From an archaeon (GTDB taxonomy: Archaea > Nanobdellota > Nanobdellia > CSSed11-243R1): a stretch of DNA of 64,000 bases. Where the stretch lies: contig JAJRVP010000005.1 of NCBI GenBank assembly GCA_024277205.1, positions 2,286 to 66,285 of the forward strand, written 5' to 3'. Under the pieces are notes generated by a model. That model was not told the origin of the DNA. It did not search any database and worked only from the letters and a program-made list of their open reading frames with translations. Positions 10,771 through 34,061 of this stretch are shown one piece after another. Numbering within the stretch: position 1 is the stretch's first letter; each line of letters begins with the position of its first letter. The position numbers and the translations under genes are program-made.

Positions 10771-13575
10771 CTAGTTGAAAGGATTACAATCTGCTGGCCA
10801 TACAGATGGAGTGGGAATTAGATCCCATTTATCTGTCCCTCCACAAAGAACTGAATAAGAGTCTCCTCCAACATCTGTTATAGAATCCCCATTATCACAA
10901 AATCTCATATAAGTGTCACATAAAACATGACTATCGTACAAACCATAAATAGAAGATGGTATTCCATAGATATCTGATTTTTCCATGTCATCTGGTATTA
11001 TTTGTATCTGAAGATATGGATGATAATCCTCCCCTTCTCCAAATGTACAATCTCCTGGAGAATCACAATCAATAAATGCATAACAATATCGCATAGATGT
11101 TCTTACACAATCCCATATGAATGTCTTTGTAACTGAATTTTCAGGTGCCAATTCAAAACTAGCTTCCTGCAACCAACTATATGGTTCACCAGTAATAAAA
11201 TCATTGTCTTTTTCTGTACCTAAATCTACTTTTATTTTCCCTGTTTCTGGAAGATTTCCATAATTTTTAATAGTAATTGAAATTTTGACAAAACCAACAT
11301 CCTCTCTTCCTACGCAACACCAATATGTATCATATCCACCCCCTCTTTTAAATTCTACTTGTATCGCTTCAATTAAAACACTTCTTGGTGTTTCACATTT
11401 TTGTTTTTCTTCATTCCACAATTCAGAAGGATTACAACACACACCTGGGACTTTTGGATTGGTGTTCACCTTATTTTCCACAATTGTTTCTTCGGGGTTA
11501 TTGTATTGTTCTGTAACATATTTTAAACCTGGTTTACACATTTCAGAACATGTTGCTTCTTCATTTCGTTCTTTCCATTTTATAACACACCCTCTTGGGT
11601 CTGAAAAAGTTGAATCTGTTGTTGGACATCTTGAACAACCCAAATTACTACAAGAACCTATAAACTCAGGTAATGTTCCATCTGCAGATTCTCCACAATC
11701 TTGTGGGCAGTTCCAACATCTTTCTCCCGAATCATATGAACAAATACCATCTCCACAAATTGGAATTTCTGTATAACAAAGAACTCCTTCTCCTTCGCAA
11801 CCACCCAAAATTTGTTGGGTTGCTTCCCCAATTGGTTGTAAGTCCTCACCAACAAACATTGGAATGATATCCGTAGTACTTAAAATACTTGGAGCCATGT
11901 CATATGAAAATTTCCAATTGTATGTGTATCTTGAGATTCTGTGGGTGTTATATTCGCAATAGTTATTATCACACCCTTGACTATAATCTGATTGGTGTTG
12001 ATAACATCCAGTTACTGCTTTTCCATCTTCACATCTATAATACTTTGCCATATTATCTATTATGTCTGAATAATTACTCCATAACCATCTTACTAAGTTC
12101 TCTTTGTTGGTTGTATCTGGTAAGCAAAAAATTGTTTGATCTTCACATTTTGGGCAATCACAATTTGGACCATTTGGTGCAGAACCACCATAACAATTCA
12201 TTCCATATGTAAAGTTTCTATATGTTGGGTTTCCGCAATTAATAGAACTTGTTGGTGATATCTGAACATTTTCTCTTTTTGAAGCAAATGAAAAGTGCAA
12301 TGGGATTGATATTCCTGCCACATCTTTCCATCTTTGTAATGGTATTTTATCACTGCAAGTATCAATACAATCTGTTTGTCTTCCAAGATAGTCATAACAT
12401 ATACCTAAATCATCTGGACGTTCATTAATTTCTAATGTAGTTGTAATTGGTGTAAGGGCGCCACCTACATATGTTTGTATGTGATAAACCCCTTGTGGAA
12501 TGTCTGGTGTTCTAAATGCGCAAATTGCAGTTTGATTAAATGACTTAACTTCACACAATTCAGTTGATCCAATTTTTAATTTAACAACTGCATCTTTACA
12601 ATTTTGTAAGTTATATATCTGTGCAAGTATTGTATCATTTCCGCAAGCACGATTTTTTGAAAGTTCTAATATGCCAGCACAATATTGGCATCCTGTTGAA
12701 GGGGGTTCAATTACATTTACTTGTGCATCATCTGTGTCCTCTATGATTAATGTTGTATTTTTAACTTTCAGATTTATAGTATAAACTCCTGTTGAAGTAA
12801 AGGTGTGTTGAATTATTTTTCCATACTCAGAGATACCTCCACCATACCAGTAGTATTCGTCTATAAATCCACGCGAGCCACTTCCGTCTAATTTTATAGG
12901 ATAATCTTTGCATGCTACTCTGTCAGGTCCTGCATCTGCAACAATTGTACAAGAAGGATCACTTGTATCCCATGTGTACTTGCAAATATTTCCACTACAT
13001 TGTTTAATCATACAAGATCTATCTGAACAATCTGTAGAAGATATACATTCAACACAGCTACTTGTTGATGAATCACACAATGGTGTGTCCCCTGAACAAA
13101 CTGTAGTGGCGTAGTTACAAGTTGGTGTACAACTGCCACAAGTTCCACTTCCAGTGCAATACTGAGTACAAGATGCTGTTGAAGTTATTGGTGTTTTTAA
13201 TACATTGCCTTGGCAAAAAGAAGAACATGTGATTGTGTTTGTTCCGCAAGGAGTAGATGATGGATAATAGCTTGTTAACCCTGTATGTCCTGTTGATGTA
13301 TCACAATTTGCACTTGTATCGCAATATGTACAAGGATCACCTGCATAATCTCCTGCGTCACAATCGCAATTTTTTATTTGTCCTGTTACACAAATTGCAT
13401 TTGTAGGATCGCAAGTAAGCCCTGAACAACAAGGTATTGAAGCACTACAACTTTCACCTATTTGAGCACAAGTTGGTGCTACACTTTTGCTAATGCTTAT
13501 GTTAATAAAAACTATTGCAAGCACTACAAAAATCTTCAATATTTTTGAATTAACTTTTGATTTCATTTTAATCAT
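10771..13575 (-). CDS. Large secreted Cys-rich surface protein with a PKD domain
   Basis: Sec-type N-terminus; Cys-rich N-terminal region; PKD-like VADAGPD...LDGSGS...HTFTSTGVYTINLKV (~12710-12945); CGDGIC...ERCWNCPQDC repeat; CARDB/Ig-like ITIKNYGN segment. Confidence 0.7.
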   Translation of the reverse strand: MIKMKSKVNSKILKIFVVLAIVFINISISKSVAPTCAQIGESCSASIPCCSGLTCDPTNAICVTGQIKNCDCDAGDYAGDPCTYCDTSANCDTSTGHTGLTSYYPSSTPCGTNTITCSSFCQGNVLKTPITSTASCTQYCTGSGTCGSCTPTCNYATTVCSGDTPLCDSSTSSCVECISSTDCSDRSCMIKQCSGNICKYTWDTSDPSCTIVADAGPDRVACKDYPIKLDGSGSRGFIDEYYWYGGGISEYGKIIQHTFTSTGVYTINLKVKNTTLIIEDTDDAQVNVIEPPSTGCQYCAGILELSKNRACGNDTILAQIYNLQNCKDAVVKLKIGSTELCEVKSFNQTAICAFRTPDIPQGVYHIQTYVGGALTPITTTLEINERPDDLGICYDYLGRQTDCIDTCSDKIPLQRWKDVAGISIPLHFSFASKRENVQISPTSSINCGNPTYRNFTYGMNCYGGSAPNGPNCDCPKCEDQTIFCLPDTTNKENLVRWLWSNYSDIIDNMAKYYRCEDGKAVTGCYQHQSDYSQGCDNNYCEYNTHRISRYTYNWKFSYDMAPSILSTTDIIPMFVGEDLQPIGEATQQILGGCEGEGVLCYTEIPICGDGICSYDSGERCWNCPQDCGESADGTLPEFIGSCSNLGCSRCPTTDSTFSDPRGCVIKWKERNEEATCSEMCKPGLKYVTEQYNNPEETIVENKVNTNPKVPGVCCNPSELWNEEKQKCETPRSVLIEAIQVEFKRGGGYDTYWCCVGREDVGFVKISITIKNYGNLPETGKIKVDLGTEKDNDFITGEPYSWLQEASFELAPENSVTKTFIWDCVRTSMRYCYAFIDCDSPGDCTFGEGEDYHPYLQIQIIPDDMEKSDIYGIPSSIYGLYDSHVLCDTYMRFCDNGDSITDVGGDSYSVLCGGTDKWDLIPTPSVWPADCNPFN

Positions 13576-16500: not shown

Positions 16501-17014
16501 AACTTGGAATGCAAGTATAGGAATTAACGCGCCAATAAGGTAGATATTTTTCAGCAATGTAAGGAACATTTAAATCTTTCCTGCCACAACTAAATCCTGC
16601 CCCATTGTTAATATTTGGAAAACAATAATTTGGTAGAATTACTTGGCTACCTCTACGACATTTACCTTTGTTAATACCAGCAGTTATACATACTGACCCA
16701 GTTGGACATGTACTCCCACAAGTTGGTAATGTGCAATCTTGGCTAGGTATCAAATCTGAAATTGAATATCCTCCAAATGAACCAGTAGCAAAAAGAGATT
16801 TATCAACTGCATAACCTCTTTCTTGATCTAACAATTTTTTAAACATTTCCGCGTTCTTGGCTGCAGATATAGCACTAAACCTAAAAAAACTTGCTTGAGA
16901 TGCAGATTCCAAATCTTTTGAAAGTCCGAGCATACCAACTATTAATATTATTGCTATTGCAAGTGCATACAAAAATGCACTTATGCCATACAATTGGGCT
17001 TTTCTTAATCTCAT
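13568..17014 (-). CDS. Giant pilin-like adhesin with class III signal, F5/8-type-C (discoidin) domain and Cys-rich repeats
   Basis: RKA|Q followed by a hydrophobic helix; discoidin motifs (YKIEGSLDGVHW, KYIRITG, VVEFQAF); DxDGDG-type loops; CxxCG-x4/5-CC-like repeats; ATGA overlap at 17011-17014. Confidence 0.75.
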   Translation of the reverse strand: MRLRKAQLYGISAFLYALAIAIILIVGMLGLSKDLESASQASFFRFSAISAAKNAEMFKKLLDQERGYAVDKSLFATGSFGGYSISDLIPSQDCTLPTCGSTCPTGSVCITAGINKGKCRRGSQVILPNYCFPNINNGAGFSCGRKDLNVPYIAEKYLPYWRVNSYTCIPSFEKVMETFRTYAGQFYAKPNENVLNALTAGTMYPIYFNYYLDFNLQRDVNTEDGILQTRWIPVGQDYIILSVPPENPSVEYEVKPYVHLFSKTRFFDVYYEAKSFVEDEYFEDFLKDPQYSPIPSIIDKDQSVVKHYSDGSIEACVCSDTQFDSDGDGTVDKDLAPGETCTEDTTLCKSPQQPFKVLVDYIKNNPDLYPNEEPNLCSFPTSISDTYSGNCKVHAIMTDEGKLRVDYFSGDCSTTSNNDNNAMKCVIKRIINRMNKELLSKPVEKNVASLYWGAQIKAVDYSDPTAPARIEGELYNQRLQHVIDGDETHYDGSYGYGYVLWDPNGDGGVDDAQAMIITLADEYVIDSVRIHLWDKDDRYYLYKIEGSLDGVHWNKLVDATTGSHKSVEEWNITPMKVKYIRITGTKNTANNQFHVVEFQAFADIEYRYLISSFDLEYTGSGFSDKVYNATDLDSGGDAPRAIAEPDPADCTDAICKPETTEYCANFPGEDCPCCGEGIGGPGLSCCNTSYADSDYKNKCWEEVCVGEVNIVVDPTSIKKCSSANVIVTGLCNYCDSKTATISWTGCGSGSVTTETFGAGGINTGGVSEIITFTTPGTCTITATVDINGDGDTNDAGETASTTLIINDCGLDGLEACDDDCSNYYNGCIDGTAKAPSTYSTGSYSYTQGYCYTCGGDNQICCDNVEDGATFDNNKCNTGYCSGGNTPQCVPCGTLNQPQCPYTDTGMYNGCYDTSPPLAPNGSGICVECGFAGDICCDNEYTDGYFDDTQGCYHFAFSAWGTIPGYRNTCSGGTCVPCGSEGGQPPCPTCTGTAGFLGYYVGVNCGSPFDKCYFPAYLGTDNLCHGGSKCWHAKSGSGVSIGCGTSSCTTAVICQDTAPTCVYYTGVWPLCDSHTVTADTYTRCGEKFQYPTTVSGDCQDCVISGYLCSDSLRTSIGYNKEPGDWWCDGSYVSFTCTSNYVQGYIDYND

Positions 17015-17622
17015 TCTACGCACCTGCCCCCACTACATTTTAAACCCGGATCGCAAAAATTACCTGGACAACATTCTTTTCCTTTAATCCCACAAGCATC
17101 TGTATCTTCTGCCACAAACAATTCTGCTGTACCTATTTGTCCAGTTGGGTTGTAAATTGGAATAAAACAAAATTGTTTTATTGTTAAACCTTTTTCTTTG
17201 AGTTCGTCCATGATTTCTTTTCTCAAATCGCCAGATATTCTTTTAGATGCTAAATAACCTTCTATATAAGTTGGTTTTTGCCCCAAAGGTGTTGTTTTTA
17301 ACTTGGTTGTGTAATCAACTAGCGTAGTATTAAATTCGTTTGAAACAAAAATGTATCTTCTATCTCCACCAAAATAATTATACATTTTACTAAATTCTGG
17401 GTGTTTGCTTACATTGTCTCCTTCTCTTATGTATTCATCTCCTATTAAGGGAAGTATCATGAAAAAGCATCTTTGATCTATTTCTTGATCAAGAATGGAT
17501 ATCATGCCCTCAAGTGTTATACCATTAACAAATGTATTTAAGAAAAATATGCCACCCAACCCAATTACAGCTACTACAACCATTCCAACTAATGCATCTG
17601 GTCCAAATTGCGCGCGTTTCAT
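17011..17622 (-). CDS. Minor pilin-like protein
   Basis: KRA|Q followed by a hydrophobic helix; C-terminal CGIKGKECC...C...C...C module. Confidence 0.7.
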   Translation of the reverse strand: MKRAQFGPDALVGMVVVAVIGLGGIFFLNTFVNGITLEGMISILDQEIDQRCFFMILPLIGDEYIREGDNVSKHPEFSKMYNYFGGDRRYIFVSNEFNTTLVDYTTKLKTTPLGQKPTYIEGYLASKRISGDLRKEIMDELKEKGLTIKQFCFIPIYNPTGQIGTAELFVAEDTDACGIKGKECCPGNFCDPGLKCSGGRCVE

Positions 17623-18704
17623 TTTTTCACATATTTTGCTTTAAATTCAATTTCTGGTAGAGTCATACCTTGATGGTTTTCTCCTTCAAGCAAACAAGTT
17701 TGTATGAGCAACACACCAGGTTTTAATTCCCCATTATCATAAATACTAATTGGTATGATGGTTCTTTTCACACTTGAAGCATCAAAACATGTGGTATCCA
17801 ACTGATTCCATATCCCGATCTGATAGTTTTCTTTGCTTGTGTTTGCTGCAACAGTTCCTTCAAAAACATAAAGTGGTTCATAAACTTTCCATATTGGCAA
17901 TATCCCACCAGGGTCGGATTTATTATCCTCTATAACGCAAGCCCCTGAAAAGAGATTTGGTGGATGGTCATCATAATTATCAACATAACAATCTCCTTTT
18001 TTACATGATTGTGTATATGGATACGCAGTTGTGGATTTACATATATCTGAAACATAACACCCATATGTATTTCCTTCATCATCAACACATCCATTTGCAT
18101 TCCAGGAATAATCACAACCACACATTGCGTGATAGTCCAAATTACATCCTGCAATATTTCCTCTATTTTTATAATTAACTTTACAGGGTACTAATTTTTT
18201 ATTTATTCTCCCTAGCAAAGAAGTTACAATTCCTTCCTTAATTGTTGTTGGATTAGTTAAACCAGTCACAAATTGTGGAGTTTCGCCGCTCAAGTCTACA
18301 ACTGCAATATCATACTTAAATGCTGCACCAGTACCTTTAGCAGCATCCCACACACCTTCCGCTACATCTGCTTTTAAGTCATAATTGTCTTTCCTCATAC
18401 AGTTAATATGTTCGTAATCAATCACTTTATTTTTATCAATTATATTTGGAAATACTCTGCTAACAAATTTTAATTGTTGGGATTCTAGATTTACAATTAT
18501 TTCCCTATCCTCATAAGCTAAACAATCTGCAGAAGAAACAATTCTTCTTGTTGCAAGAAGATAAGCTGTGTTTTCATCAAATTCTCTGATTGTAAATTTA
18601 ACATGTTGTGTCATTGACAAGAGTGAGATTAAAACTATGAAAAATATCATTATTGAAACGAGCTGAAGTGCAAAAAATACAAGTAATGCTTGTCCTTTTT
18701 TCAT
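17619..18704 (-). CDS. Minor pilin-like protein
   Basis: KKG|Q followed by a hydrophobic helix; RRIVSSADCLAY segment; Cys-rich insert. Confidence 0.7.
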   Translation of the reverse strand: MKKGQALLVFFALQLVSIMIFFIVLISLLSMTQHVKFTIREFDENTAYLLATRRIVSSADCLAYEDREIIVNLESQQLKFVSRVFPNIIDKNKVIDYEHINCMRKDNYDLKADVAEGVWDAAKGTGAAFKYDIAVVDLSGETPQFVTGLTNPTTIKEGIVTSLLGRINKKLVPCKVNYKNRGNIAGCNLDYHAMCGCDYSWNANGCVDDEGNTYGCYVSDICKSTTAYPYTQSCKKGDCYVDNYDDHPPNLFSGACVIEDNKSDPGGILPIWKVYEPLYVFEGTVAANTSKENYQIGIWNQLDTTCFDASSVKRTIIPISIYDNGELKPGVLLIQTCLLEGENHQGMTLPEIEFKAKYVKK

Positions 18705-20002
18705 GGATTTTCCTCCAAATTTATAGTTACTCCAAAATATGGTTTGGTAGCAATTGATTCATCAACATAACACTTTCCTATTGATATATCGCATGTACAA
18801 CCTACTGAAGATATACAACTGACTTGTGTGACAACCTTAATGCTTCTATATTCTAAGTAAGAATCTCTATTATTAAATGAGGGGTTATCTATTGTAAATT
18901 CGCATCTCTCGATAGAATTTAATTTAGAAATATCAAAACAATAAATATCTACATCTGTTTGTTGTGTCTCATCCACAACATTTTGTGGATCTTGTGCAAC
19001 TCTTTTTAAACATACATCGCCGATGTTATAAATTTTTATATAATACATTGGTAGGAGTACTATTTCTTTATCTGTAGCTGTACCACTCCAACAAGAATCA
19101 TATGCTAGCTGGAGTATTTCGTATATCGGATCTCCATCATATTTTGGATAAACCCAATTCAATGTATCATAAATCCCATCTCTTATCTTTGAGATTAATA
19201 TTCTTTCTCTTACAATTTTAAATTCAACTACATCTCCATAACCATAATCTTTTAAGTTTGCAAATCCAGGATATTCAATTAACAAAGGATCCTCTAAAAC
19301 ATGACGTGGGAATCTTGCTGGCATTATTGCTTTTATATAATAAACAAAATCACCTTTTCCATAAATTGTCTTTGTTTCTTTACCTCCCTTTTGAATACCA
19401 AAATTTGAAATATTCATAAAACCGTTTAAACAAGAAAGTTGCCTCTTAGTTGGTTCTTCCCAAAAACAACCAACATCCTTATTAGAATTACAATCATTTT
19501 CATTGAATGTCTCGCAAGCTTCATAAACACCAACCCCATCTCCGCTACAATATGAGAATATGCTTTCACCATCTACTGTCCTATCATAATAAGGTATACA
19601 CCCCTCATTTTCACATCTATCCTCATCTAATAATCTACACTCATCTACACACTCTGTTCCTGTCCAAGCACATCCTACTAATTTCTGACATTTTTCTTCG
19701 GTTTCCATAAACTCGCAGGATACTATTGCCGCATTACAACCCACATTAGAATCATCCGGTTCTACAAATTGACACATTCTAGGAGGCTGATAATATACTT
19801 TGATATTATCTGGCACAGAATACGCAACATCTGCTAGGGTTACTGTATCATGTGCAATTACTGCAGCTAATCTTGCCGCATCTGTTAAGGGACCTAAAAG
19901 TGCAAATGCAAAGATTAATGAACCTATTAATGCTGCTGCGGGTATTACAATTGCGCCAATTGTCAGGGCTATATCAACTTGGGCTTTTTTTGTTTTTAGC
20001 AT
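18701..20002 (-). CDS. Minor pilin-like protein with Cys-rich repeats
   Basis: KKA|Q followed by a hydrophobic helix; three C...E..C....GC.W-like repeats. Confidence 0.7.
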   Translation of the reverse strand: MLKTKKAQVDIALTIGAIVIPAAALIGSLIFAFALLGPLTDAARLAAVIAHDTVTLADVAYSVPDNIKVYYQPPRMCQFVEPDDSNVGCNAAIVSCEFMETEEKCQKLVGCAWTGTECVDECRLLDEDRCENEGCIPYYDRTVDGESIFSYCSGDGVGVYEACETFNENDCNSNKDVGCFWEEPTKRQLSCLNGFMNISNFGIQKGGKETKTIYGKGDFVYYIKAIMPARFPRHVLEDPLLIEYPGFANLKDYGYGDVVEFKIVRERILISKIRDGIYDTLNWVYPKYDGDPIYEILQLAYDSCWSGTATDKEIVLLPMYYIKIYNIGDVCLKRVAQDPQNVVDETQQTDVDIYCFDISKLNSIERCEFTIDNPSFNNRDSYLEYRSIKVVTQVSCISSVGCTCDISIGKCYVDESIATKPYFGVTINLEENP

Positions 20003-20868
20003 TTACCACACCAAGTATCGCAAGGGATTTTATCATTTGCATTATACACAGTACTTCCACCTTCAATTTTCATATTAAGAAACCACCCATAATCTTGTTT
20101 TTCTAAAATAAATATTTCAAATTTTATTGGTCTTTTTTGGAAGGAATCACCTTTTAATCCAGCAAGCCAAACAAGAGGTTTTCCAAAATAACGAAGCGTA
20201 CAAGGATACATAGTACCATCTGGTGCTCTATATGTGCAACCAATATCTTCTATAATGCGCGCACAATCCATCACTTTTATTCGTTCAACAGCATAATCAT
20301 TTCCTTCTTTATCAAATGCATTCAATAACTTATTGTTCGCCCATGTTGTTATTTTTTGAAATTCCTCTTCCCATGTTGAACCTGCGTTAACAGTAATGAG
20401 GTTATTATAAGGAACACAATCAGCAAAGAACGAACTTGAATAATCTATCCTCAGTAAACATAGACACGCATCCTGCAAATTTCCAATATTTGGTGTTGTA
20501 CATTTTTTAATTGCAAATTTACCATCGTTCCCGATATCCTTTAATTGCTTTCCATCATAAGACCCACTATAAAGATAATCTGCTGTTTCGCGAGGTATAA
20601 TAACAGCTGCATACGCCCTTTGGTCTACATCAGTTCTTAGTTTAAATGGTGTTAAAGTTTCTTCTCCTTGTGTCATAGCTTTTGCCATTAGTGCTTTCAA
20701 ATCATTAAATGCCTGTTTATTGTTTGCATCTTCAACTGCTGTTGAAATTGACGAACCAAAATAAATAAAGATGAGCAAAATTACGACAACAATTATTATT
20801 CCCCCTATTATTTCAATCCAATATTTTGTAAATCCTTTTTTCATCTTTAAAAGGTTAATCATGGACAA
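19996..20868 (-). CDS. Minor pilin-like protein (paralogue of 20859-21767)
   Basis: KKG|F followed by a hydrophobic helix; shared FN..MxK...G.ET and CxCLxR motifs. Confidence 0.65.
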   Translation of the reverse strand: MSMINLLKMKKGFTKYWIEIIGGIIIVVVILLIFIYFGSSISTAVEDANNKQAFNDLKALMAKAMTQGEETLTPFKLRTDVDQRAYAAVIIPRETADYLYSGSYDGKQLKDIGNDGKFAIKKCTTPNIGNLQDACLCLLRIDYSSSFFADCVPYNNLITVNAGSTWEEEFQKITTWANNKLLNAFDKEGNDYAVERIKVMDCARIIEDIGCTYRAPDGTMYPCTLRYFGKPLVWLAGLKGDSFQKRPIKFEIFILEKQDYGWFLNMKIEGGSTVYNANDKIPCDTWCGKC

Positions 20869-22146: not shown

Positions 22147-22225
22147 TAGTATTTTCTAATACTTATGGATATATAACTTTTAAGAAAACAAAAAATTAAA
22201 AGAAAAAATAAAAGCTTGGCTATGT

Positions 22226-22680: not shown

Positions 22681-22698
22681 ACATCCTCTTGTAGAAGG

Positions 22699-23043: not shown

Positions 23044-23045
23044 GA

Positions 23046-23327: not shown

Positions 23328-23370
23328 CTTACCTCCAAATTTTTTAGTTAATTGATTATTAAAAACATTT

Positions 23371-23996: not shown

Positions 23997-24009
23997 ATTT
24001 ATCACATCC

Positions 24010-24532: not shown

Positions 24533-24533
24533 T

Positions 24534-25514
24534 TTAACATCCAATATCATTATCTGCTGCTAATACGCAACCATCACCTGTTTTTTCGCAAGTTACATCT
24601 TCATCAAAACACCAGTATACGCTATCCCATGGTGGGGTTTCTCCTGTCCAACAATCTGCATCTCTTATGTTCTCCCCATATGGCATTTTATCCAGATATT
24701 TTATGAACAATCTCCCTTTTTGTATATATTTACCAGAATAGTAAGTGTCATCAACTTTCTCTCCCCCACCAATTAGTGCACCGCTAACATAGAAAATATA
24801 ATCGTTTGTCCTTGTTATTGTAAGCCGCATTCCTCCGTCTGTGCTCTTAATCTTGTCCCAATATGTTATCCCACAACCATCAGGATCACCAGGGTCACAT
24901 TTTTTATTGCTTGGGTATTCATGCGTTTTTAGATAATAAACAATTTCTTCGATAGTGACTCCTCTTTCAAGGTTGAAGTTTATTACAAAACAAGTTCTTG
25001 GGTTTGGTGGTGTTTTTCCTGTTAATGGATCAAACTTTCCTTTTGAAAACATACCCCAACAATCAACACTTCTTTCAGCAACTTCTCTCATAAAAACTTC
25101 TGGGGAAGTCAAACTATCACCACAATCCTTCTCAAAATCCCCTATTTTTATTGTTGGGTTTGGACAATGCATTAAGGGTAATCCAGAAAAAACAACCAAG
25201 ATTGTATACAACAAAAAAGCTATGAATGCAGCATAAATTGATAAACAATATATGTTTCCTGGGAATGCTTTACAAAAGGATCCATAAATTACAATTAACA
25301 ATGCCATTACACCAATCATTGCCCAAAAGAACAACCAAATTAAATTAACTAAGATACCCCTCACATAAGATGTCCATGTTATCAATGTTGTACAAATTAT
25401 TGTTTGAAGATTTGAAATTAATCCTGCTTTCATGATTAACATTATCCCTATTGCTAGTGAAATAATTGCCAAGATTAACATTACAACTGTTTGCAGAGCA
25501 ATTCCTTTTTTCAT
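24534..25514 (-). CDS. Multi-TM pilin-like protein (paralogue of 25511-26410)
   Basis: KKG|IALQ, two extra TM helices, AERSVDCWGM...PLTGKTPPNPRTCF. Confidence 0.65.
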   Translation of the reverse strand: MKKGIALQTVVMLILAIISLAIGIMLIMKAGLISNLQTIICTTLITWTSYVRGILVNLIWLFFWAMIGVMALLIVIYGSFCKAFPGNIYCLSIYAAFIAFLLYTILVVFSGLPLMHCPNPTIKIGDFEKDCGDSLTSPEVFMREVAERSVDCWGMFSKGKFDPLTGKTPPNPRTCFVINFNLERGVTIEEIVYYLKTHEYPSNKKCDPGDPDGCGITYWDKIKSTDGGMRLTITRTNDYIFYVSGALIGGGEKVDDTYYSGKYIQKGRLFIKYLDKMPYGENIRDADCWTGETPPWDSVYWCFDEDVTCEKTGDGCVLAADNDIGC

Positions 25515-26410
25515 ATTTCCTCCACACACCATACTATTGCATCATGAGGTGGGTCGAACTGTCCAAATGGCCCTACTGAGATTCCACCACATGGTGCACT
25601 TGATAGCGAGCCAGTCCAATCAAAGTCATGCCTATCTAAAAACATGACATAGACTCTCGAATCTTTTACTTTGCAATCTGCCCAATCATCTGGGTTGTTC
25701 CCTTTAAAAGTGGAACCACAATATAAATACAATTTTAAATCGGGTTCCTTACCTAATGGCCATGACGCATTAAAAAGCCTGTACGTTTCATCAAATACGT
25801 GCTTCATGTTATCCTCTGTTTTAATGTAGGTTTCAAGAGTAAAACAAATCCTTGGGTTTGGAGGGTCTATACCAAAAAGTGGATTTAATTCTCCTGCGCC
25901 AAGCATATTATAACAATCAATTGTTCTTGATGCAATTGTTTCAATAAATTTGTCAGAATCTACTGGCTTGCTTCTAAAACCAACATCGATTGTTAAAGAG
26001 GGGCACATAAGGGGAATTTTTGGGAACATAGTTAAAATGACAAATAGCATAATTGTACTACCAATTCCTAAATATGAAAATGCCCTAGTCAATGTTCCTT
26101 TTGCAACATCTTTTAAAATTATTTTTGGAACTTTTGTGATGCCTCTAATTCCTGTTTGAAATAATGCTCCAGCACCACCGATAAGTACAGTAAAAATAGT
26201 TATCATTGTCAAAGCAATGCTCAAAAGTGACCAAATTGTTTTAATAAAATAATCCCGAGTATATGCTGAAAAGGTGCAAAACATTACTGCTGTTTGTTCT
26301 TTAAATGCTGCAAGCAGTCCTGTCTGCATTAAAACAAAGATGATTAACACTAAAAAAACAATTCCAACTATGAATTTTACTGCAGTTTCGAGTGCAACTC
26401 CTTTTTTCAT
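25511..26410 (-). CDS. Multi-TM pilin-like protein (paralogue of 24534-25514)
   Basis: KKG|VALE, extra TM helices, ASRTIDCYNM...PLFGIDPPNPRICF; GGTGG SD before the ATG at 26410. Confidence 0.65.
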   Translation of the reverse strand: MKKGVALETAVKFIVGIVFLVLIIFVLMQTGLLAAFKEQTAVMFCTFSAYTRDYFIKTIWSLLSIALTMITIFTVLIGGAGALFQTGIRGITKVPKIILKDVAKGTLTRAFSYLGIGSTIMLFVILTMFPKIPLMCPSLTIDVGFRSKPVDSDKFIETIASRTIDCYNMLGAGELNPLFGIDPPNPRICFTLETYIKTEDNMKHVFDETYRLFNASWPLGKEPDLKLYLYCGSTFKGNNPDDWADCKVKDSRVYVMFLDRHDFDWTGSLSSAPCGGISVGPFGQFDPPHDAIVWCVEEI

Positions 26411-26455
26411 CAGAACCACCTGCGGGTTCCGATACCTCCCGCATCCTTTTTTCAT

Positions 26456-26653
26456 TTATTCACCTGTGAGTACTTCAAAAATTCCAGAGCCGAAATTATA
26501 AAGGGTTTCACCAGATTTTTCAGCTGTTAATCTTGGAATAACAATTATTATAATAATTGCAACTAGCAACAAAAATAAAATAATTTTGATAATATTCCCT
26601 GTTGAAAAGTGCATGCCTTGTTCTTCAAGTCCTTTTTTATTTAGTTTAACCAT
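26456..26653 (-). CDS. Short pilin-like protein
   Basis: KKG|LE...FSTGNII followed by a hydrophobic helix; FST..II is shared with the 24010 protein. Confidence 0.6.
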   Translation of the reverse strand: MVKLNKKGLEEQGMHFSTGNIIKIILFLLLVAIIIIIVIPRLTAEKSGETLYNFGSGIFEVLTGE

Positions 26654-28331
26654 TCCAACACCAATCTCCTGTTGGTATTCCTAAGAAATTATCAGTATAA
26701 TTGTTTTCAGTATATTCTGTTGTTTGTAAAAGGGCCTTAGCAGCAATATAATTATCTCCTTTACAATCTAGATTTGTAATTTGACTATTTTCGATATTAC
26801 ATGGAAGGGTTACTTGAGTAAACCAACATTTTCCTTCAAATGAACCTTCAACTTGGTGAGCAATGAGTCTTGGACGTGATGTGAAGGTTATGCTCTTCAG
26901 TATTGGTGTCTGACTTGTATCTGTTGTTTTTAACATTGCTTTAAAAAATATATTTCTACCTTCAATTAAATCAATTGTTCCTGTATTATCTTTATCGCCA
27001 AATGGAGAATCTTGCCACTCAGTATTGCTCCACCCAGCTATTGTATCTGTTTCATACTGAATGCTAATATCAGTAATTCCAGGGGAAACCTCTTCTTCCC
27101 ATTCTACTTTTGTCCAATTAACATCCCTTGGAAGATTTCCAATTGCTTGAGATTCATATTCACCCGTAAAATAAGATTGGATAACTACATCACCAGCACA
27201 TTCCCACTCTCCCACATCATTAACTAGCCAATTCCCACAAGAAGTACCATCTCCATCTGAATCACAAGTAATCTTATTCCCATCCTCATCATAACACCCA
27301 TTATCATCACAATGATCAATAACATCTTCAAAACCAGGTGGCACCTCTGAAATAGCACATTTTGTTCCTACACAAAATCCAGATAAACAACAATCAGATA
27401 TAGTACAAGATCCCCCATTCTGTTCTTTTGGTTTAAAAAAGTAACATACTTGGTCTGCACCAGGTGTCAATGCATTACCATCTTTATCATAACAATATCC
27501 TGTATAACTACCACTAAGACAATATCCATTTGGTGGATTAGGATTATTGCACTGTCCAAATTCATAGCCACTATTTGTAGCTTGTATATTGCAACAATTC
27601 TCATCACATGTTGAACATTCTCCACAATTAAACCAACCAATGTTTATTATTCGTTGAATGTCTGATGTTTGCATTAAACAAGTACAAAATGGGACCCAAC
27701 AACCACTACTTTCTCCAAAACATTGTTTTTCACAACAATCTCCTCTACAAACAAATCCCCCACATTCAGGTAGAGCAACACAGGAGTATGTGGTTCCATC
27801 TGATGTAGAACAATATTCATTACCACCACAACCACAATCTTCCCAGCAACCCATACAGTTTTCTCCATTTGCCTCTTCGCAGATACCATCTCTATCACAA
27901 ACATATCCACATAACAAATCATCTACTTCATCACAATCATTTCTATTTGCACAACAAACTTTTCCTTCTGTGCAAATACAATCATTTGGGGAGTTACCAC
28001 AATTTTCGCCTCTATTCATGTCACAACTACCATCACCTCTGCAGAAATAGCTATCACTACTTTGAGTACATGTTGAACCAGATGGACATCCACAATCTGC
28101 AGAACAGGTGTTACAATTTTCAAATATATCGCATAAACCATTTCCGCAGCAATCGCCACAATCATCTGGACATAACAAGCAACTCTCAGAATCGCCACAT
28201 ACGTCATCTCCACAAGTAGAATCATCATCGCTAGCGATGGGATTAGCAATGCTAATTGTTAGAAAAATTACTACAAAAAACAATATTCCAAAAATTATCT
28301 TTCTTTGATTCATCATTATCATCCTTGACAA
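26646..28331 (-). CDS. Secreted Cys-rich repeat protein
   Basis: Sec-like signal; four CG[DN]GxC...ENCxxCxxDC-like repeats; C-terminal beta-rich domain (GEYES...W...TPILKSIT). Confidence 0.7.
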   Translation of the reverse strand: MSRMIMMNQRKIIFGILFFVVIFLTISIANPIASDDDSTCGDDVCGDSESCLLCPDDCGDCCGNGLCDIFENCNTCSADCGCPSGSTCTQSSDSYFCRGDGSCDMNRGENCGNSPNDCICTEGKVCCANRNDCDEVDDLLCGYVCDRDGICEEANGENCMGCWEDCGCGGNEYCSTSDGTTYSCVALPECGGFVCRGDCCEKQCFGESSGCWVPFCTCLMQTSDIQRIINIGWFNCGECSTCDENCCNIQATNSGYEFGQCNNPNPPNGYCLSGSYTGYCYDKDGNALTPGADQVCYFFKPKEQNGGSCTISDCCLSGFCVGTKCAISEVPPGFEDVIDHCDDNGCYDEDGNKITCDSDGDGTSCGNWLVNDVGEWECAGDVVIQSYFTGEYESQAIGNLPRDVNWTKVEWEEEVSPGITDISIQYETDTIAGWSNTEWQDSPFGDKDNTGTIDLIEGRNIFFKAMLKTTDTSQTPILKSITFTSRPRLIAHQVEGSFEGKCWFTQVTLPCNIENSQITNLDCKGDNYIAAKALLQTTEYTENNYTDNFLGIPTGDWCWNG

Positions 28332-29692
28332 ATAGTTTCTTCCAAAGTTAAATAGGGGGGTATTCTATCTGTTGTTAAGTTAGTTGAGGACCCACTTGTG
28401 AAATCAGTTACAACGTAAGTTGGATAATACTGAACAGTATCATCATTCTCGATATTAGCATCTGGGTTTCCAAAATAGGCGTAATATTCAACTTTTGCAC
28501 CATCAGAAAGGCTGTCAACAACAAATTCAACAACAGCATAAGTACAATAACCATCTTCATCTGTTTCATAAGATAAAACATTTCTTTCAAGAGGAATATT
28601 ATCTGAGGTTGTAATAACAATCTCTTTTTCACAATCTGTTATGTTTACATCATATCCAAGATAATCATCACTTAAATTTAATTCAACAAGGGCTGTTTCA
28701 CTTGTAATATCTGTCCCAACATCGTTTTCTAATTCAATTGTAACTCTATACTTCCACTCTTCGCTATACCACCCACTTGGCTGTTTGGATCTATCAGATT
28801 CTATTGTAAAAAGGCAATCGTCTCCACCGCTATCTTTCATCATAACTTCTCTTCCTTCTTTGTTTGTCATTGATAATGAAACTGTTGCAGTTGGACATAA
28901 TTCTAAAACATCATCACCTGTAATTGAAACTGTGGTTGTTGTTAATGGAATACTTCCATCAAAATCAACACTCAAAATACTGATATTCACTTCCTTCTCA
29001 GGGGGAGATACGCAAAAATCATAACTCTCTTTGAATGAACTTGGTTTATCTTCTCCTTTAAAATATGTTTTTGAATTTGGGTCTTTATCTGCTGTTAAAT
29101 TGATCTCAATTTCTCCGTGACAGGGGGTTTGTTGTGGTTTTGTAATAATAAATCTACCTGTGTTTCCATAACTAAACATATAATCTGTGGTATTTTGAAC
29201 TATTATACTCTCAAAAATAACTCCATCCCTCTCTCTTTTTTCAGTCATATAAAGAAGTATTTGAGAGGGGACATTTCCCTCATATCTAAAATCCACAATC
29301 CATTTTGAATAATTGAGGTCTTCCATATATTCAGATTCACAGCTTTGTTTACAGGATTCACAATTAGATTGTATGTCTGCTGAACAATAATCACAATTTT
29401 CATTTTTAGGATGTGCGTCACAACTGTGAATCTCTTCACATTTTTCTTTGCAACTTGATTGATTAATTGTTTCTTGAGTAACATCAAGAATAATGATCTT
29501 TCCAGGGGTTGAATAATGTGGTTTTCCAATCAAACTTGAAACTGTGAAGTTCACACCCAAATCTTCTGCAAAAGATTTATACGATAAAAAAATTCCAAGG
29601 AATAACATTGCAACTGCAATTCCACTTATAATTAATACTAGCATTACTCCTGTTATTGCTTTCTTGTTCATTTCTTTTTTAAACTTCCTCAT
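28319..29692 (-). CDS. Pilin-like protein with a C-terminal DUF2341-like domain
   Basis: KKA|I followed by a hydrophobic helix; GWYSEEWKYRVTIEL...YYAYFGNPDA pattern. Confidence 0.65.
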   Translation of the reverse strand: MRKFKKEMNKKAITGVMLVLIISGIAVAMLFLGIFLSYKSFAEDLGVNFTVSSLIGKPHYSTPGKIIILDVTQETINQSSCKEKCEEIHSCDAHPKNENCDYCSADIQSNCESCKQSCESEYMEDLNYSKWIVDFRYEGNVPSQILLYMTEKRERDGVIFESIIVQNTTDYMFSYGNTGRFIITKPQQTPCHGEIEINLTADKDPNSKTYFKGEDKPSSFKESYDFCVSPPEKEVNISILSVDFDGSIPLTTTTVSITGDDVLELCPTATVSLSMTNKEGREVMMKDSGGDDCLFTIESDRSKQPSGWYSEEWKYRVTIELENDVGTDITSETALVELNLSDDYLGYDVNITDCEKEIVITTSDNIPLERNVLSYETDEDGYCTYAVVEFVVDSLSDGAKVEYYAYFGNPDANIENDDTVQYYPTYVVTDFTSGSSTNLTTDRIPPYLTLEETICQG

Positions 29693-31734
29693 GCAAATTC
29701 ACCAAGTGCAATTGCAACTTTTGCCATTCCAGCAAACGCAATTGTTACTCCTAATGCTATAAAGAAATAAATAATTATTGAAATAATTAGTGCTTTTTGA
29801 ATAGAATCCAACTCTTGGATTCTATCATCGCCAAATTCTATTTTACTTGCTAAAATTGTTGATATAACTACAATTTCAATAAGATAAATTCCTACAACAA
29901 TTTGAAAAATTGGCAAGGGTATTGTATTTGACATCTCAAAAAACCCAAATGCCATTGAACCCCCTAAACCTGCGCCACCAACAGTTCCTGGAACTTCTGC
30001 TGCTGAGGTTGCTGCTGATATTTTCTCACCCAATACTGAAAGAATAATTAATATCATTGATGTCAAACCAACAATAATTCCTGAAATCAAAGGTGCGATA
30101 AAAGAAGATTGAAACTTTAGAGTTGAAAGAGTTTCTGAAAGAACATCTCTTATTTTTTCTTCAATTCTATGTACTGATTGGAGATAGTGTGCAATGTGCA
30201 TTAATGAAGCTGCTGCAACTTCTTCAGATTCTTTTGTGGATTCAATAAAAATCTTCATAACACTTTTTATTAAAGAAGATGGGTACATTACAATAGCGCC
30301 ATATTTAGAATCAAAAATTGCTCTTTTTAGGTCCATGCCAAGTTTGGACATGTTGTCTGCAATTCTTTTAATAAATAAAGCCACATTTGATTCTTTCATG
30401 GTTGCTGCTGTTTTAAGCATTGCAATTTCTGCTGGAACACCTTCTGATAATCTGTTTCCTATTTGGAAAACAGCATATGTGAAATCTCTTTCAACACCTT
30501 TTATGTCCTTCCTTAGTTTTACTCTTATTCCTGAAGCTAATTTTGCATAAACAGCAATTCCCATTCCTATTGCCAAAATTAAAAATAATGAAAACAAAAC
30601 ATCATTCTCGCTTGGAACAGGACTTCTCATAAAAATCAAATACCAAACAAATGGGATTACGAGGACAAAAAAAGTTAATGCTGCTGGTATTGCTGCATGA
30701 ACTGGTTTACCAAATAGATAAAAATGGTCTTTTGGAGGAACAAGAGGGTGTCCTTCGAGATTTATTTGTGGAAATGCTGTTGGTCTTGTTGAAAGTATTT
30801 GCATTATCATTAATATAACTGCTAATGGAAGAAGTATATCATAAAAAACAAAAAGTGATGATGGGGTTAAAAGATTTGCAAGAAATGCACCAATCAATGG
30901 GAGCATGACAAGTCCCATTATTGGAAGTGTTATACCCAGCATAAAAACTGCGGAGATTGGGGTTCTTAAATCATTTACATAATGAACCATCATCTCATAT
31001 GTTCCATCAAGAATTCTTTTTAATGCTTGGTCAAGCATATTAATTCTTCTTTCTTCGCTAATTTGGACTAATGATGTTTCAATTAAATATATAGAATCCA
31101 CAAATGCCTCATTATACTCTTTCCATTGTTTTAAATAAGCATTAAGTGCTTCTTGAATGTCTGCATACTTTTTTGCAGAAACATCCCAAAGCATTTTTCT
31201 AAAATCCATGCCAAGCGGACCTTCAAGATTATCTGCTGCAAATCTTACTGCTGCTTCAAGATTAGAAACTGTTTTCATGTATATTACAATATACAAAACT
31301 GAAAGTATAACTTCAGTAGATGCTTTTGCCCTTCTTATCTGAACAAGTTTTTGAGGGTAATCTTTTAGATAAAAAAATGCAAATAAACCAAGTGCTATTA
31401 GAGCAATACCAAACATTAATGAAATTATAAAAAAGAAAACACCAAATACTATTGCTGCTACAAATGTAAGAATTGCAAGGGACATTGCATCTTCTGCGGT
31501 GACAGCATAGTTAAAGGATTTGAAAATATTATCTATCTCTGCTTTTTTGTCTGGGGGGACAGGGTATTTAAATATCTTTCCAGCAAACTGGGCAAGTTTT
31601 TCATAAAGCATTGTGGCTTTTGTTTTTTCAGAAATAAAAATTCTGTATTCCCTAGTCAAAAGTTCTTCTGAGAGTTCCCCTTGCTCTGCTTTATATTGTT
31701 CATAAAGCTTACGAGCAATTTCTTTTTCCCTCAT
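29689..31734 (-). CDS. Type IV filament membrane platform protein (TadB/TadC, ArlJ-like)
   Basis: Two T2SSF-like halves (NLEAAVRFAA...GPLGMDF; GVPAEIAM) with many TM helices; directly downstream of the ATPase. Confidence 0.85.
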   Translation of the reverse strand: MREKEIARKLYEQYKAEQGELSEELLTREYRIFISEKTKATMLYEKLAQFAGKIFKYPVPPDKKAEIDNIFKSFNYAVTAEDAMSLAILTFVAAIVFGVFFFIISLMFGIALIALGLFAFFYLKDYPQKLVQIRRAKASTEVILSVLYIVIYMKTVSNLEAAVRFAADNLEGPLGMDFRKMLWDVSAKKYADIQEALNAYLKQWKEYNEAFVDSIYLIETSLVQISEERRINMLDQALKRILDGTYEMMVHYVNDLRTPISAVFMLGITLPIMGLVMLPLIGAFLANLLTPSSLFVFYDILLPLAVILMIMQILSTRPTAFPQINLEGHPLVPPKDHFYLFGKPVHAAIPAALTFFVLVIPFVWYLIFMRSPVPSENDVLFSLFLILAIGMGIAVYAKLASGIRVKLRKDIKGVERDFTYAVFQIGNRLSEGVPAEIAMLKTAATMKESNVALFIKRIADNMSKLGMDLKRAIFDSKYGAIVMYPSSLIKSVMKIFIESTKESEEVAAASLMHIAHYLQSVHRIEEKIRDVLSETLSTLKFQSSFIAPLISGIIVGLTSMILIILSVLGEKISAATSAAEVPGTVGGAGLGGSMAFGFFEMSNTIPLPIFQIVVGIYLIEIVVISTILASKIEFGDDRIQELDSIQKALIISIIIYFFIALGVTIAFAGMAKVAIALGEFA

Positions 31735-34061
31735 TATGTCTCTCCTTTTTTAATTCTTGATTTTAACCAAACTTCAAATTCTCTTAGAACTTCTTTTGAT
31801 TCAGGATATCCTGTTTCCTCTCTTAAATTATCAAATATTCTATGAAATATATCATTTGCTTCAACAACAAAGTCAGCTTCTAAAAGTCCATTTGGTCCTG
31901 TTATTCTGCCTGTTTTTTCAGCATACTTTCTCAACATATCTTTTATTTCTCCACGCAAAACAATGTTGTCCCAAACTAAATCCCATTTACCAACCCATGC
32001 TCTTACTTTTGATGCAATTGATTTTACAACTTCGCTTTCACCTTCAATCAAATCTCTTGTTGGTACAATTTTATCTTCTTTTGCATCATACTCCATTAAA
32101 TTCATAAATCCCCCTTCTTTAAGAGGGTCTTCTTCCCAAGTTTTTCTTATTTCTGTTATGTGAGTTGTTCTTCTTATCTCTCTCATCTGGTCTGGGGTTC
32201 TAAGTTTTCCTGCAACCACAACTATATCTGTTGCTTTGAAACTTGTTCTTGGAACGCCCAAATCATTTACAACTCTATCAAATACACCATATGGAGAATC
32301 TCCATGTATTGTACCTGCTACAACATTTGCAAGAGCACCAACCCTCATAGCTTCATAAAGCGCTCTTGCTTCTGTGCTTCTTACTTCACCCACAATCAAC
32401 GCAGAGTCTCCTAAACGAAGAGATGTCCTTATGCCATCCTCTGCAGAAAGTTCTGCTTTTTCTCCAACAATTGCTGAACGTACTTTCATTGGAAGGATAT
32501 TATATCCTATATTTCTCATGTAATTAACTGGAAGTTCAAGTGTATCTTCAACAGTAATAATTCTAAACTTTCGCATTATTTCAACCATTAATGCACCCAA
32601 CAAGGAGGTTTTACCAGCACCTCTTGTTCCTGCGATGAGCATTGAACGTGCACCATCAATTAAAAATGAAAGAAGTCCTGCTGCTTCTTTTGAAAGCGTT
32701 TTATAGTGTATGAATAAAGGTAGTGTCCATGGTCTTTCTCTATGCTGTCTAAATGCAAAAGAATATCCCCCGGGACTTAATGGATTCTGAATTATTGCGG
32801 TTCTTGCTCTTGCAACATTTGGGATAAATAATTCGGTATCAAGAACAGGATTTGCTTCATCTAAGGGTCTTCCTGAAATCATTCTAAATCTTGATGCCCA
32901 TGAATCTGCTTCTCTTCTTTGAGGAATAATATTAGTTTCACATTCGCCATATTCTGCATGCTTTATGTAAATTGGTAAAGTTCCAATTGGTGCATTGATG
33001 TATATGTCCTCAACTTTTGGGTCGCTAAGAAGAACTTCAATCATTCCAAAACCAACAGTAAGTCTTACAAGAAGTTTTGCGAGCCTTTCTACTTTAGTAT
33101 ATGAAATTTTGATTCCTTTGTTTTTTGCAACTTGGGTAATCAAATCTTTTGCTATGTTAAAAAATATCGAACGCATTCTTTCTGGGTCAATAAATTCTTC
33201 TTCTTTTGGCTTGTATCTGGATATAATCTGTCTTGCTTCATCAAGCAAAACATATTCATCCTCTGCTAATTGAAACTCTGGGGATAGAACATGGTATCTT
33301 AATCTAACTTGATTTGGGAGTTTTAAAATAGAAACTGTTGATTTCAGCTCTTTGCCAATTGTATATGTTGCTATTTCTTCAGCCATTGTTGGTGGTTCTG
33401 CTTGCAATCTAGTAAACATAAAATTTGGACGTATTAGTGGCTCAAAGAATTTAAAATATATGTCCCTGTTCCCAACTTTATATCCTGGTAAATATGGTTT
33501 GGCAAGTTTGATTAACTCTGTTTTTTCAAGTCTTTCTATGATTTCATCAAGAACAGCTATAAATTTTTGTAAACATTTTTTATATTTTGATTCATAAAGT
33601 TCCATCTGTGCCTTTTTTTCTCTCTTAATCCTTATTGCTGAAACATAAGCACCAACAGGGTCTCTTTTTAGTTGCTCCATTACAATTCTGCGTATGGTAT
33701 GCAAAAGTTCTGGATAAAATTTTTGGCAATCTGGAGAGTCCAATCCAATTGATTCTTTTTTTAATATCTCCCTTTGTTTGATTAAATAAACATAAACAGA
33801 AGCAATTTCATTCAAAAATTTAACTTGTTCAAAGGGATATATGTAATTTCTTTCTGCTTGGTAAGTTATTGTTGTAACTGCACCGGTTTCGATAAGAAGG
33901 TTAATTGTTTTTTCCATGCATTCTCCGCTATCTTCTAGAGATGGGTAAAATGGACAACCAATTGTATTGATTACAAGATTTATCTCACCACCTTCTCTAA
34001 CTATTTCATAATCAAAACACTTTTTTTCTTGTTTTACCATGCTCAACCTCACCAAAGGCAT
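31734..34061 (-). CDS. Type II/IV secretion assembly ATPase (TadA/ArlI-like)
   Basis: Walker A GTRGAGKT, Asp box TVEDTLEL, Walker B LIVGEVR, His box TIHGDS. Confidence 0.93.
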   Translation of the reverse strand: MPLVRLSMVKQEKKCFDYEIVREGGEINLVINTIGCPFYPSLEDSGECMEKTINLLIETGAVTTITYQAERNYIYPFEQVKFLNEIASVYVYLIKQREILKKESIGLDSPDCQKFYPELLHTIRRIVMEQLKRDPVGAYVSAIRIKREKKAQMELYESKYKKCLQKFIAVLDEIIERLEKTELIKLAKPYLPGYKVGNRDIYFKFFEPLIRPNFMFTRLQAEPPTMAEEIATYTIGKELKSTVSILKLPNQVRLRYHVLSPEFQLAEDEYVLLDEARQIISRYKPKEEEFIDPERMRSIFFNIAKDLITQVAKNKGIKISYTKVERLAKLLVRLTVGFGMIEVLLSDPKVEDIYINAPIGTLPIYIKHAEYGECETNIIPQRREADSWASRFRMISGRPLDEANPVLDTELFIPNVARARTAIIQNPLSPGGYSFAFRQHRERPWTLPLFIHYKTLSKEAAGLLSFLIDGARSMLIAGTRGAGKTSLLGALMVEIMRKFRIITVEDTLELPVNYMRNIGYNILPMKVRSAIVGEKAELSAEDGIRTSLRLGDSALIVGEVRSTEARALYEAMRVGALANVVAGTIHGDSPYGVFDRVVNDLGVPRTSFKATDIVVVAGKLRTPDQMREIRRTTHITEIRKTWEEDPLKEGGFMNLMEYDAKEDKIVPTRDLIEGESEVVKSIASKVRAWVGKWDLVWDNIVLRGEIKDMLRKYAEKTGRITGPNGLLEADFVVEANDIFHRIFDNLREETGYPESKEVLREFEVWLKSRIKKGET

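Follow-up and report, generated by a model that had tools for sequence, protein, structure and literature searches.

What would an archaeon with a 0.68-Mb genome build with 24 closely packed genes, 20 of which encode pilin-like proteins? DPANN archaea are believed to rely on contact with host cells, through molecules of which little is known. The locus that raises the question lies at positions 10771-34061, on the minus strand, of a 64,000-nucleotide window, the term used here for the whole stretch of DNA that was analysed (contig C1, positions 2286-66285). The source genome, G000, is a 684-kb assembly of 21 contigs, 91.6% complete and with a G+C content of about 33%. On balance, we favour the view that the locus encodes an adhesive type IV filament (T4F) machine and all of its substrates, modular tip adhesins included. 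In a DPANN-type archaeon of this genome size, the most likely use of such a machine would be attachment to, and discrimination of, a host or another surface.

Gene content and layout of the locus

Between 10771 and 34061 we counted 24 minus-strand open reading frames (ORFs), numbered g1 to g24 in transcription order. They encode a PilB/FlaI-type ATPase (g1), a polytopic platform protein (g2), 20 pilin-like proteins and two Cys-rich proteins with Sec-like signals (g4 and g24). With longest-ORF starts, 21 of the 23 junctions overlap or abut, and the sole intergenic gaps, of 95 and 79 nucleotides, flank g15. Shine-Dalgarno motifs favour later starts for g6, g7, g12, g13 and g23, and some of the overlaps are therefore short gaps in reality. 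A packed T4F-type locus is confirmed, and the inventory given in an earlier, sequence-only reading of the window holds: 24 same-strand and mostly overlapping genes, one ATPase, one TadB/C-type platform and two Sec-type Cys-rich proteins. Searches of Pfam and NCBIfam with all locus proteins named only the ATPase, a PKD domain and a discoidin domain. A database lookup listed neither a sequencing run nor a holder of RNA data for window positions 21701-31700, which has no bearing on expression.

Pilin-like N-termini were sought with a leader rule that asks for K or R followed by G, A or S and then, after at most 12 residues, a 16-residue window with a mean Kyte-Doolittle hydropathy of at least 2.2. 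The rule flags g3 and g5 to g23, the 20 pilin-like proteins, and also g24. Among the 899 crude ORFs of the whole genome it picks out 65, and 20 of these lie here (20/22 against 45/877, Fisher's exact p = 1.5e-22). Many of the flagged ORFs elsewhere cluster beside two other T4F loci of the genome, at C14:6866-9503 and C20:15515-21297. A relaxed FlaFind-like regular expression matches 12 of the 20 N-termini. Shine-Dalgarno motifs (GGAGG, AGGAG or AGGTG) stand directly 5' of the leader ATG in g6, g7, g10, g12, g13, g15, g21 and g23; judged by this position, the true leaders would therefore be only 3-7 residues long (MKA, MKS, MKKG, MMSKA, MRLRKA). Q occupies the predicted +1 position in 10 of the 20 proteins, and the pilin-like ORFs of the canonical T4F locus on contig C20 likewise start with MKSQ, MKAQ or MRRSQ.

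The ATPase and a diverged platform

The first two genes of the locus make up the predicted motor:

31734-34061, minus strand: g1, assembly ATPase of the PilB/GspE/FlaI/TadA family, 775 amino acids (aa), assigned through PF00437
29689-31734, minus strand: g2, platform of a diverged single-gene GspF/PilC/TadC/FlaJ type, 681 aa with about nine transmembrane segments, assigned through its fold and a chain of homology

The ATPase matches PF00437 with an E-value of 2.4e-17 and 63.1 bits (cut-off 24.9), and PDB sequences that it matches include archaeal GspE (2oap, 8.3e-33), CpaF (1.2e-23) and FlaI (5.3e-19). All PDB matches are confined to residues 249-667, and the N-terminal 250 or so residues form an unmatched extension. 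Its best NCBIfam match is the FlaI model, and it stays far below the equivalog cut-offs of that database (FlaI, 136.6 against 550 bits; TadA TIGR03819, 132.7 against 373; BasE NF053672, 72.6 against 1000).

The platform g2 has no Pfam or NCBIfam match; it is too diverged for Pfam T2SSF, a direct comparison being absent or marginal. Two independent lines lead around this blank. Firstly, a 43-sequence profile of the g2 family aligns with a 664-aa paralogue encoded on contig C14 of the same genome (hhalign probability 100%, E = 4.4e-54, 620 columns), and this paralogue passes Pfam T2SSF with 36.3 bits against 25.2. Secondly, an AlphaFold2 model of g2 (predicted local distance difference test, pLDDT, 82; predicted template modelling score 0.76) was compared by VIA-align with about 48,000 PDB representatives, and the top five matches, with Z from 9.1 to 11.6, all fall on residues 340-538 and are platform-type cytoplasmic domains. 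The best is the PilC N-domain 2whn_B (Z 11.6, root-mean-square deviation 2.5, 103/103), and the other four are PilC in 3jc8, EpsF 2vma, SpoIIIAB 6bs9 and TcpE 4hhx. Foldseek gave one weak top match for the same model (3jc8_Ca, E = 0.073), and the g2 profile found nothing among PDB sequences. Direct profile comparison with the genome's canonical TadC halves is weak (probabilities 24.5%, 5.8%, 40% and 3.5%), and a test for an internal repeat returned a probability of 0.65%. Because of the homology chain to a T2SSF-positive paralogue and the fold match, g2 is a GspF/PilC/TadC-type platform, as the sequence-only reading had proposed. That reading had also recognised no prepilin peptidase in the window, and rightly: the sole Peptidase_A24 match of the genome is a 274-aa ORF on contig C20 (PF01478, 49.3 bits against 26.5).

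How widely is this motor distributed? Close full-length homologues of g1 number in the thousands, source-labelled Nanoarchaeota, Woesearchaeota or Nanoarchaeia, and orthologues with 45-83% identity are present in 27 of 31 related genomes. At E <= 1e-10 the g2 profile detects a member in 391 of the 401 sampled genomes of the class, in 278 of 281 high-quality ones and in 229 of 235 genera; pattern matches in GTDB species representatives were confirmed in 577 of 600 cases, the complete genome GW2011_AR20 among them. By these searches the ATPase-platform pair is nearly universal in the class.

The synteny search that had been suggested along with the sequence-only reading placed a contiguous pilin-like array immediately behind the platform gene in half of the genomes sampled (14 of 28). 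Seven of nine mostly close relatives carry at least seven pilin-like ORFs there. The 19 further genomes were picked solely for having the platform gene on the minus strand of a long contig; seven carry at least five pilin-like ORFs after it and twelve carry fewer than five (nine with 0, two with 1, one with 2). Across this sample the contiguous array is lineage-restricted. Genomes G001, G002 and G004 match the locus almost gene for gene, and in G017, G020 and G007 the array closes with genes for giant Cys-rich proteins, which reach 2777 aa and 115 Cys. Identity between motor proteins is 35-83% across families; the pilin-like proteins share 30-60% within the genus, where gene order is kept, and across families are mostly past BLAST detection. 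A conserved motor next to fast-diverging pilin-like genes fits the pattern of surface-exposed interaction proteins. Separately, the complete single-contig genome G015 (490,885 bases) encodes a 45% identical ATPase and a g2-type platform (E = 1.1e-63), and has no array after its ATPase gene.

A candidate major pilin

A single small gene and the gaps around it stand out within the array:

22226-22603, minus strand: g15, candidate major pilin, 125 aa with 6 Cys, picked out by the gaps on both sides and by its conservation pattern
22604-22698, minus strand: intergenic stretch 5' of g15, bearing a TATA-like 'ttttaat' box and a AAAGGAGGTAAG ribosome-binding site, both putative in function
22147-22225, minus strand: intergenic stretch 3' of g15, bearing a T-rich terminator-like run and then a 'tatata' box before g16, likewise of presumed function

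No other gene of the locus has intergenic DNA on both sides. The 'ttttaat' box and the AAAGGAGGTAAG site recur 5' of four orthologous g15 copies in G000, G001 and G002, and a weaker 'tgaggtggt' site lies upstream of the G004 copy. The 39 homologues of g15, none with a Pfam domain and all either unnamed or labelled 'hypothetical', are near-invariant over about the first 32 residues (MKAQGLPINFIVIAALAILILILAAGFV) and hypervariable beyond them save for five invariant Cys. The AlphaFold2 model (pLDDT 82) consists of helices at residues 9-33 and 41-59 followed by a small beta-sheet. At E <= 1e-3 the family comprises 268 clusters among 1.84 billion representatives. A g15 profile found no relative among PDB sequences or in Pfam, and one of 89 distant family members touches Arch_flagellin (E = 2.4e-4). 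The conservation pattern and general layout of g15 are, as judged from alignment and model, those of a type IV pilin, whose N-terminal helix is invariant and whose disulfide-bonded head varies, and we regard g15 as the candidate major pilin, with its own putative expression signals. A predicted complex of four mature g15 copies scored 0.10 against a mark of 0.42 and is counted neither way.

Cys-rich and adhesin-like proteins

Four large proteins of the locus, two of them with pilin-like N-termini and two with Sec-type signals, are taken together here as candidate adhesins or adhesin partners:

28319-29692, minus strand: g3, large pilin-like protein, 457 aa with 15 Cys, a hydrophobic helix after the leader MNKKA
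26646-28331, minus strand: g4, Cys-rich protein with a Sec-type signal, 561 aa with 61 Cys (10.9%), no family match
13568-17023, minus strand: g23, predicted modular pilin-like adhesin, 1151 aa with 70 Cys, leader MRLRKA-Q followed by a helix
10771-13575, minus strand: g24, Cys-rich protein, 934 aa with 74 Cys, a PKD domain and a signal of Sec-like type

In the relative G002, a single ORF of 1092 aa joins the orthologue of g3 to the C-terminal end of that of g4; because of this fusion, a Rosetta-stone hint, we suggest a joint role for the pilin-like g3 and its secreted neighbour g4. In g23, a F5/8 type C (discoidin) domain lies at residues 503-597 (E = 1.2e-10). The G004 orthologue, 422 aa long, aligns over its full length with residues 1-482, the discoidin domain and then the Cys-rich C-terminal part lie beyond this alignment, and the Cys are concentrated after residue 650. 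On this evidence g23 is a pilin-like module fused to a discoidin domain. The last protein, g24, has orthologues in G001 and G002, a PKD_4 match at residues 212-287 (E = 8.7e-07) and, at residues 36-63, a sub-threshold match to the cystine-knot-like Toxin_12 (19.9 against 21 bits).

Elsewhere in the window, at 4788-5192 on the plus strand, an orphan gene encodes a 134-aa protein with a pilin-like N-terminus (MRLTVKA and a helix) and 12 Cys. It gives the same sub-threshold Toxin_12 match as the N-terminus of g24 (19.9 against 21 bits) and has no BLAST relative in the locus.

Other pilin-like proteins

The rest of the array is made up as follows:

26456-26653, minus strand: g5, 65 aa, a KKG leader, about nine polar residues and a hydrophobic helix
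24534-26455, minus strand: g6 and g7, paralogues of 314 and 332 aa, an MKKG leader and two or three further hydrophobic segments
24010-24550, minus strand: g8, g9 and g10, headless mini-pilin-like proteins of 60, 71 and 51 aa, a leader and one helix
22699-24035, minus strand: g11 to g14, four tandem paralogues of 109-118 aa with 8-10 Cys, N-terminus MK[AS]-QG[LM]P and then a helix
21764-22146, minus strand: g16 (66 aa, KAQGLP type) and g17 (61 aa, MKG leader), headless mini-pilin-like proteins
17011-21767, minus strand: g18 to g22, five larger pilin-like proteins of 302, 290, 433, 361 and 203 aa with 8-22 Cys

The four tandem paralogues g11 to g14 are of the same type as g15, and their copy number varies between genomes. 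Six of the small proteins (g5, g8, g9, g10, g16 and g17; 51-71 aa) are hardly more than a helix; g5 is kept at the same position in G001, G002 and G004, where orthologues of g8 to g10 are also present. Paralogy of g6 and g7 rests on 23% identity (E = 1.7e-25); both have orthologues in the same three genomes, a protein atlas returned only unnamed Nanobdellota clusters for g6, and the two may be membrane accessory parts. The five larger proteins g18 to g22 start with the leaders MKRG, MKKG, KKA-Q, MKKG-Q and MKRA-Q, respectively, and have zero matches to Pfam or NCBIfam families. Positional orthologues of all five occur in G001, G002 and G004, g18 and g19 are paralogous, and the group supplies our candidates for minor or tip pilins.

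A proposed model of the filament and the points against it

How might these parts work together? In the model that we propose, the single A24 peptidase encoded on contig C20 would remove leaders of 3-7 residues (MKA, MKS, MKKG, MRLRKA etc.) from the pilin-like proteins. The hexameric ATPase g1 would dock on g2 and, as family knowledge suggests, lift the processed subunits from the membrane into a helical fibre. Polymerisation would draw on g15 as the major subunit, with g11 to g14 and the headless 51-71-aa proteins as alternative or minor subunits. At the tip, g3 and g18 to g23 would serve as priming or tip subunits equipped for adhesion, g23 for example through its discoidin domain, and would hold the secreted g4 and g24 in place, where they could bind a host.

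Several observations weigh against this model. A strict FlaFind-like regular expression matches 2 of the 20 N-termini; the 20 class III signal-like proteins of the sequence-only reading thus stand in full under the hydropathy rule, in 12 cases under the relaxed expression and in two under the strict one. None of the 20 matches a pilin family of Pfam or NCBIfam. This blank carries little weight because six pilin-like ORFs beside the canonical locus on contig C20, our control, also remain under every Pfam cut-off. Compared with solved structures, the g15 model gave nothing in Foldseek at E <= 0.001 and a best VIA-align Z of 3.6. Want of a pilin fold had been named beforehand as damaging to the idea; for g15, the one model to which this comparison applies, the helix-helix-sheet layout is there and a match to a solved pilin is not. 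Both the polar spacer of g5 and the extra membrane segments of g6 and g7 are atypical for pilins. Finally, 14 of the 28 sampled genomes have the motor pair without an adjacent array, and in five of the 12 array-poor genomes related small pilin-like genes lie hundreds of kb off or on other contigs; co-location is therefore not required.

The main rival is a bindosome-like or pseudopilus-like surface assembly, in which peptidase and motor would mature the proteins with class III signals and place them in a short stalk or a membrane-anchored array. Large Cys-rich binding proteins would be displayed there on the cell surface, and no long fibre would form. Nine of the 20 proteins (g3, g6, g7 and g18 to g23) are 200-1151 aa long and most of the 20 are not small pilins, two Sec-type partners are co-encoded, of which one forms a fusion with a class III protein in G002, and g6 and g7 resemble membrane parts, all of which this assembly would accommodate. 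There is also a precedent, since class III signals are found on the binding proteins of the Sulfolobus Bas system. A 2026 survey of archaeal T4F systems assigns the bindosome to subsystem 4I (PMC13705601). However, g15 has the look of a subunit dedicated to polymerisation, with an invariant helix and expression of its own, the BasE model NF053672 gives g1 72.6 bits against its cut-off of 1000, and searches of the locus turned up neither solute-binding nor transporter domains. We therefore consider a display assembly of this kind unlikely, if still the strongest competitor of the adhesive filament.

A competence-like pilus for uptake of DNA or nutrients would suit an auxotrophic symbiont with a reduced 0.68-Mb genome, and two papers contain the suggestion that DPANN pili may import one or the other. 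We rate it as very unlikely here: no ComEC (PF03772) was detected in the 91.6%-complete genome, while the control search was positive in 11 of 14 named genomes, a DNA-binding domain was not detected among the locus proteins, and discoidin and PKD domains are carbohydrate- or protein-binding types. A divergent archaellum for rotary motility is hardly credible, since the FlaI model, although the top NCBIfam match of g1 at 136.6 bits, scores far under its cut-off of 550, the locus encodes mainly Cys-rich adhesin-like proteins, and the failure of the sequence-only reading to recognise an archaellin extends from the window to the 91.6%-complete genome (no PF01917 match at E <= 0.01, with four archaeal control genomes positive).

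A wider reading can be put forward tentatively, and we think it possible rather than probable: g1 and g2 would be the near-universal, lineage-defining surface machine of Nanoarchaeia (Woesearchaeales-type DPANN), here with its full cognate repertoire in a single operon. This repertoire would comprise a major pilin with its own expression, a cassette of alternative pilins that evolve fast, headless mini-pilins, and modular tip pilins bearing or recruiting giant Cys-rich lectin-like adhesins. It would form a combinatorial host-recognition pilus whose variable parts set host range in uncultivated episymbiotic archaea and whose pilin family supplies the 'missing' DPANN pilins. The sequence-only reading, which had one motor build a combinatorial or highly decorated filament for host recognition, is supported in its gene content and motor; the single combinatorial filament and the recognition of a host stay conjectural. 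The operon links a motor that is near-ubiquitous in the class with some 20 fast-evolving, unannotated proteins of class III type and with giant Cys-rich proteins of lectin-like kind. It offers concrete candidates for a major pilin, a tip complex and adhesins, and with them a handle on cell-cell attachment in DPANN archaea. Sequence profiles, for instance of the invariant QGLPINF helix, can locate scattered pilin genes in other DPANN genomes, and the variable adhesin set is a candidate determinant of host specificity.

Relation to described systems

Among described archaeal T4F systems, the locus is most readily likened to 'system 2' of the 2026 survey (PMC13705601), a likeness of described layout: an N-extended ATPase, a single-gene platform, many class III pilins, membrane proteins and large adhesin-like proteins in one locus. 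It differs from system 2, as described there, in its 20 pilin-like genes, its Cys-rich giants and a platform too diverged for Pfam T2SSF. According to the same survey (PLoS Genet), ordered T4F loci are rare in DPANN archaea, the ATPase and platform genes being adjacent and the pilin genes scattered. N-terminal Cys-containing extensions are reported for the subclade 4F ATPases by Makarova et al. 2016 (PMC4858521), and by this description g1 resembles them; the pilins of nanoarchaeal ATPases 'could not be identified' in that account, whereas candidate cognate pilins lie directly downstream of the ATPase here.

Unlike the Epd-type system 1 of methanogens, which has two platform genes, the locus has one fused platform gene of 681 aa; the two-gene form exists separately on contig C20 of the same genome. 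It is likewise set apart from Tad/Flp systems, as g1 scores 132.7 bits against the 373 of the TadA equivalog TIGR03819. Bacterial type IV pili with modular minor pilins and PilY1-type tip adhesins and the type IV pili of episymbiotic Saccharibacteria share the plan of a major pilin, a minor set and large adhesins for attachment to a host cell. They belong to another domain of life, their pilins are unrelated in sequence, and the present locus is without a secretin, PilMNOP or a retraction ATPase.

The published record on DPANN pili is mixed. A groundwater study describes the components of type IV pili as 'missing in DPANN genomes' (bioRxiv 2020.05.14.094862), and in another report 'no pilins were annotated' in Nanohaloarchaeota (PMC9563170); 'FlaIJK' or type IV pili are recorded as present in three others (PMC8561730, PMC6142677, PMC10134863). 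The sequence-only reading had contrasted the locus with the handful of pilins in characterised archaeal loci, and with this we agree, since 20 far exceeds the numbers in the systems described in the passages searched. It had also named the locus the best candidate in the window for an undescribed system. This is half right: the motor pair g1/g2 is common, and public records already carry it under the label of a type II/IV secretion ATPase, whereas a complete set of 20 substrates in one contiguous array, with modular adhesins rich in Cys, is undescribed as far as we searched. The literature searched, comprising passages of main texts, contains no account of this ordered locus or its pilin families, and the DPANN loci in S10 Fig and S4-S5 Tables of PMC13705601 could bear on its novelty.

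Flanking genes and other filament gene sets

One further feature may belong to the system:

35365-37074, minus strand: three paralogous membrane proteins of 196, 194 and 176 aa, encoded immediately 5' of the ATPase gene, a possible extra part

With tblastn, relatives were found directly upstream of the ATPase gene and on the same strand in six of nine other genomes, those of distant genomes being 33-38% identical. The three proteins have no Pfam match, the protein atlas gave only unnamed Nanobdellota clusters for the 196-aa one, and on their position the trio may be part of the system. Between this block and the ATPase, at 34148-35315 on the plus strand, lie genes for a 135-aa and a 252-aa protein. 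The latter gives weak helix-turn-helix matches at residues 23-65 and coiled-coil-type matches in its C-terminal half, and could be a divergently transcribed regulator. Five more same-strand genes follow at 37074-42053 on the minus strand (464, 201, 309, 255 and 382 aa), with zero family matches.

On its other side, at 5229-10696 on the minus strand, the locus adjoins genes for Alba, an FKBP-type isomerase and FtsZ and then NusG-like and ribosomal-protein-like ORFs, the last two assigned by eye from their N-termini. This Alba-FKBP-FtsZ-NusG-ribosomal flank is common to relatives from several families, for example G017, G020 and G007.

Two other gene sets of related type occur in the genome. At C14:4823-9503 (L130) a paralogous set consists of the 664-aa T2SSF-positive platform followed by five or six pilin-like ORFs of 136-166 aa. 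There is no ATPase gene next to it; in relatives, an ATPase paralogue of about 700 aa and 40-43% identity lies elsewhere, and this was not found in the G000 assembly. At C20:15515-24738 (L005, L129) a canonical T4F locus comprises a 506-aa ATPase, two half-size T2SSF platform genes and about six pilin-like ORFs. Together with the locus described here, the 0.68-Mb genome therefore has three T4F-type gene sets.

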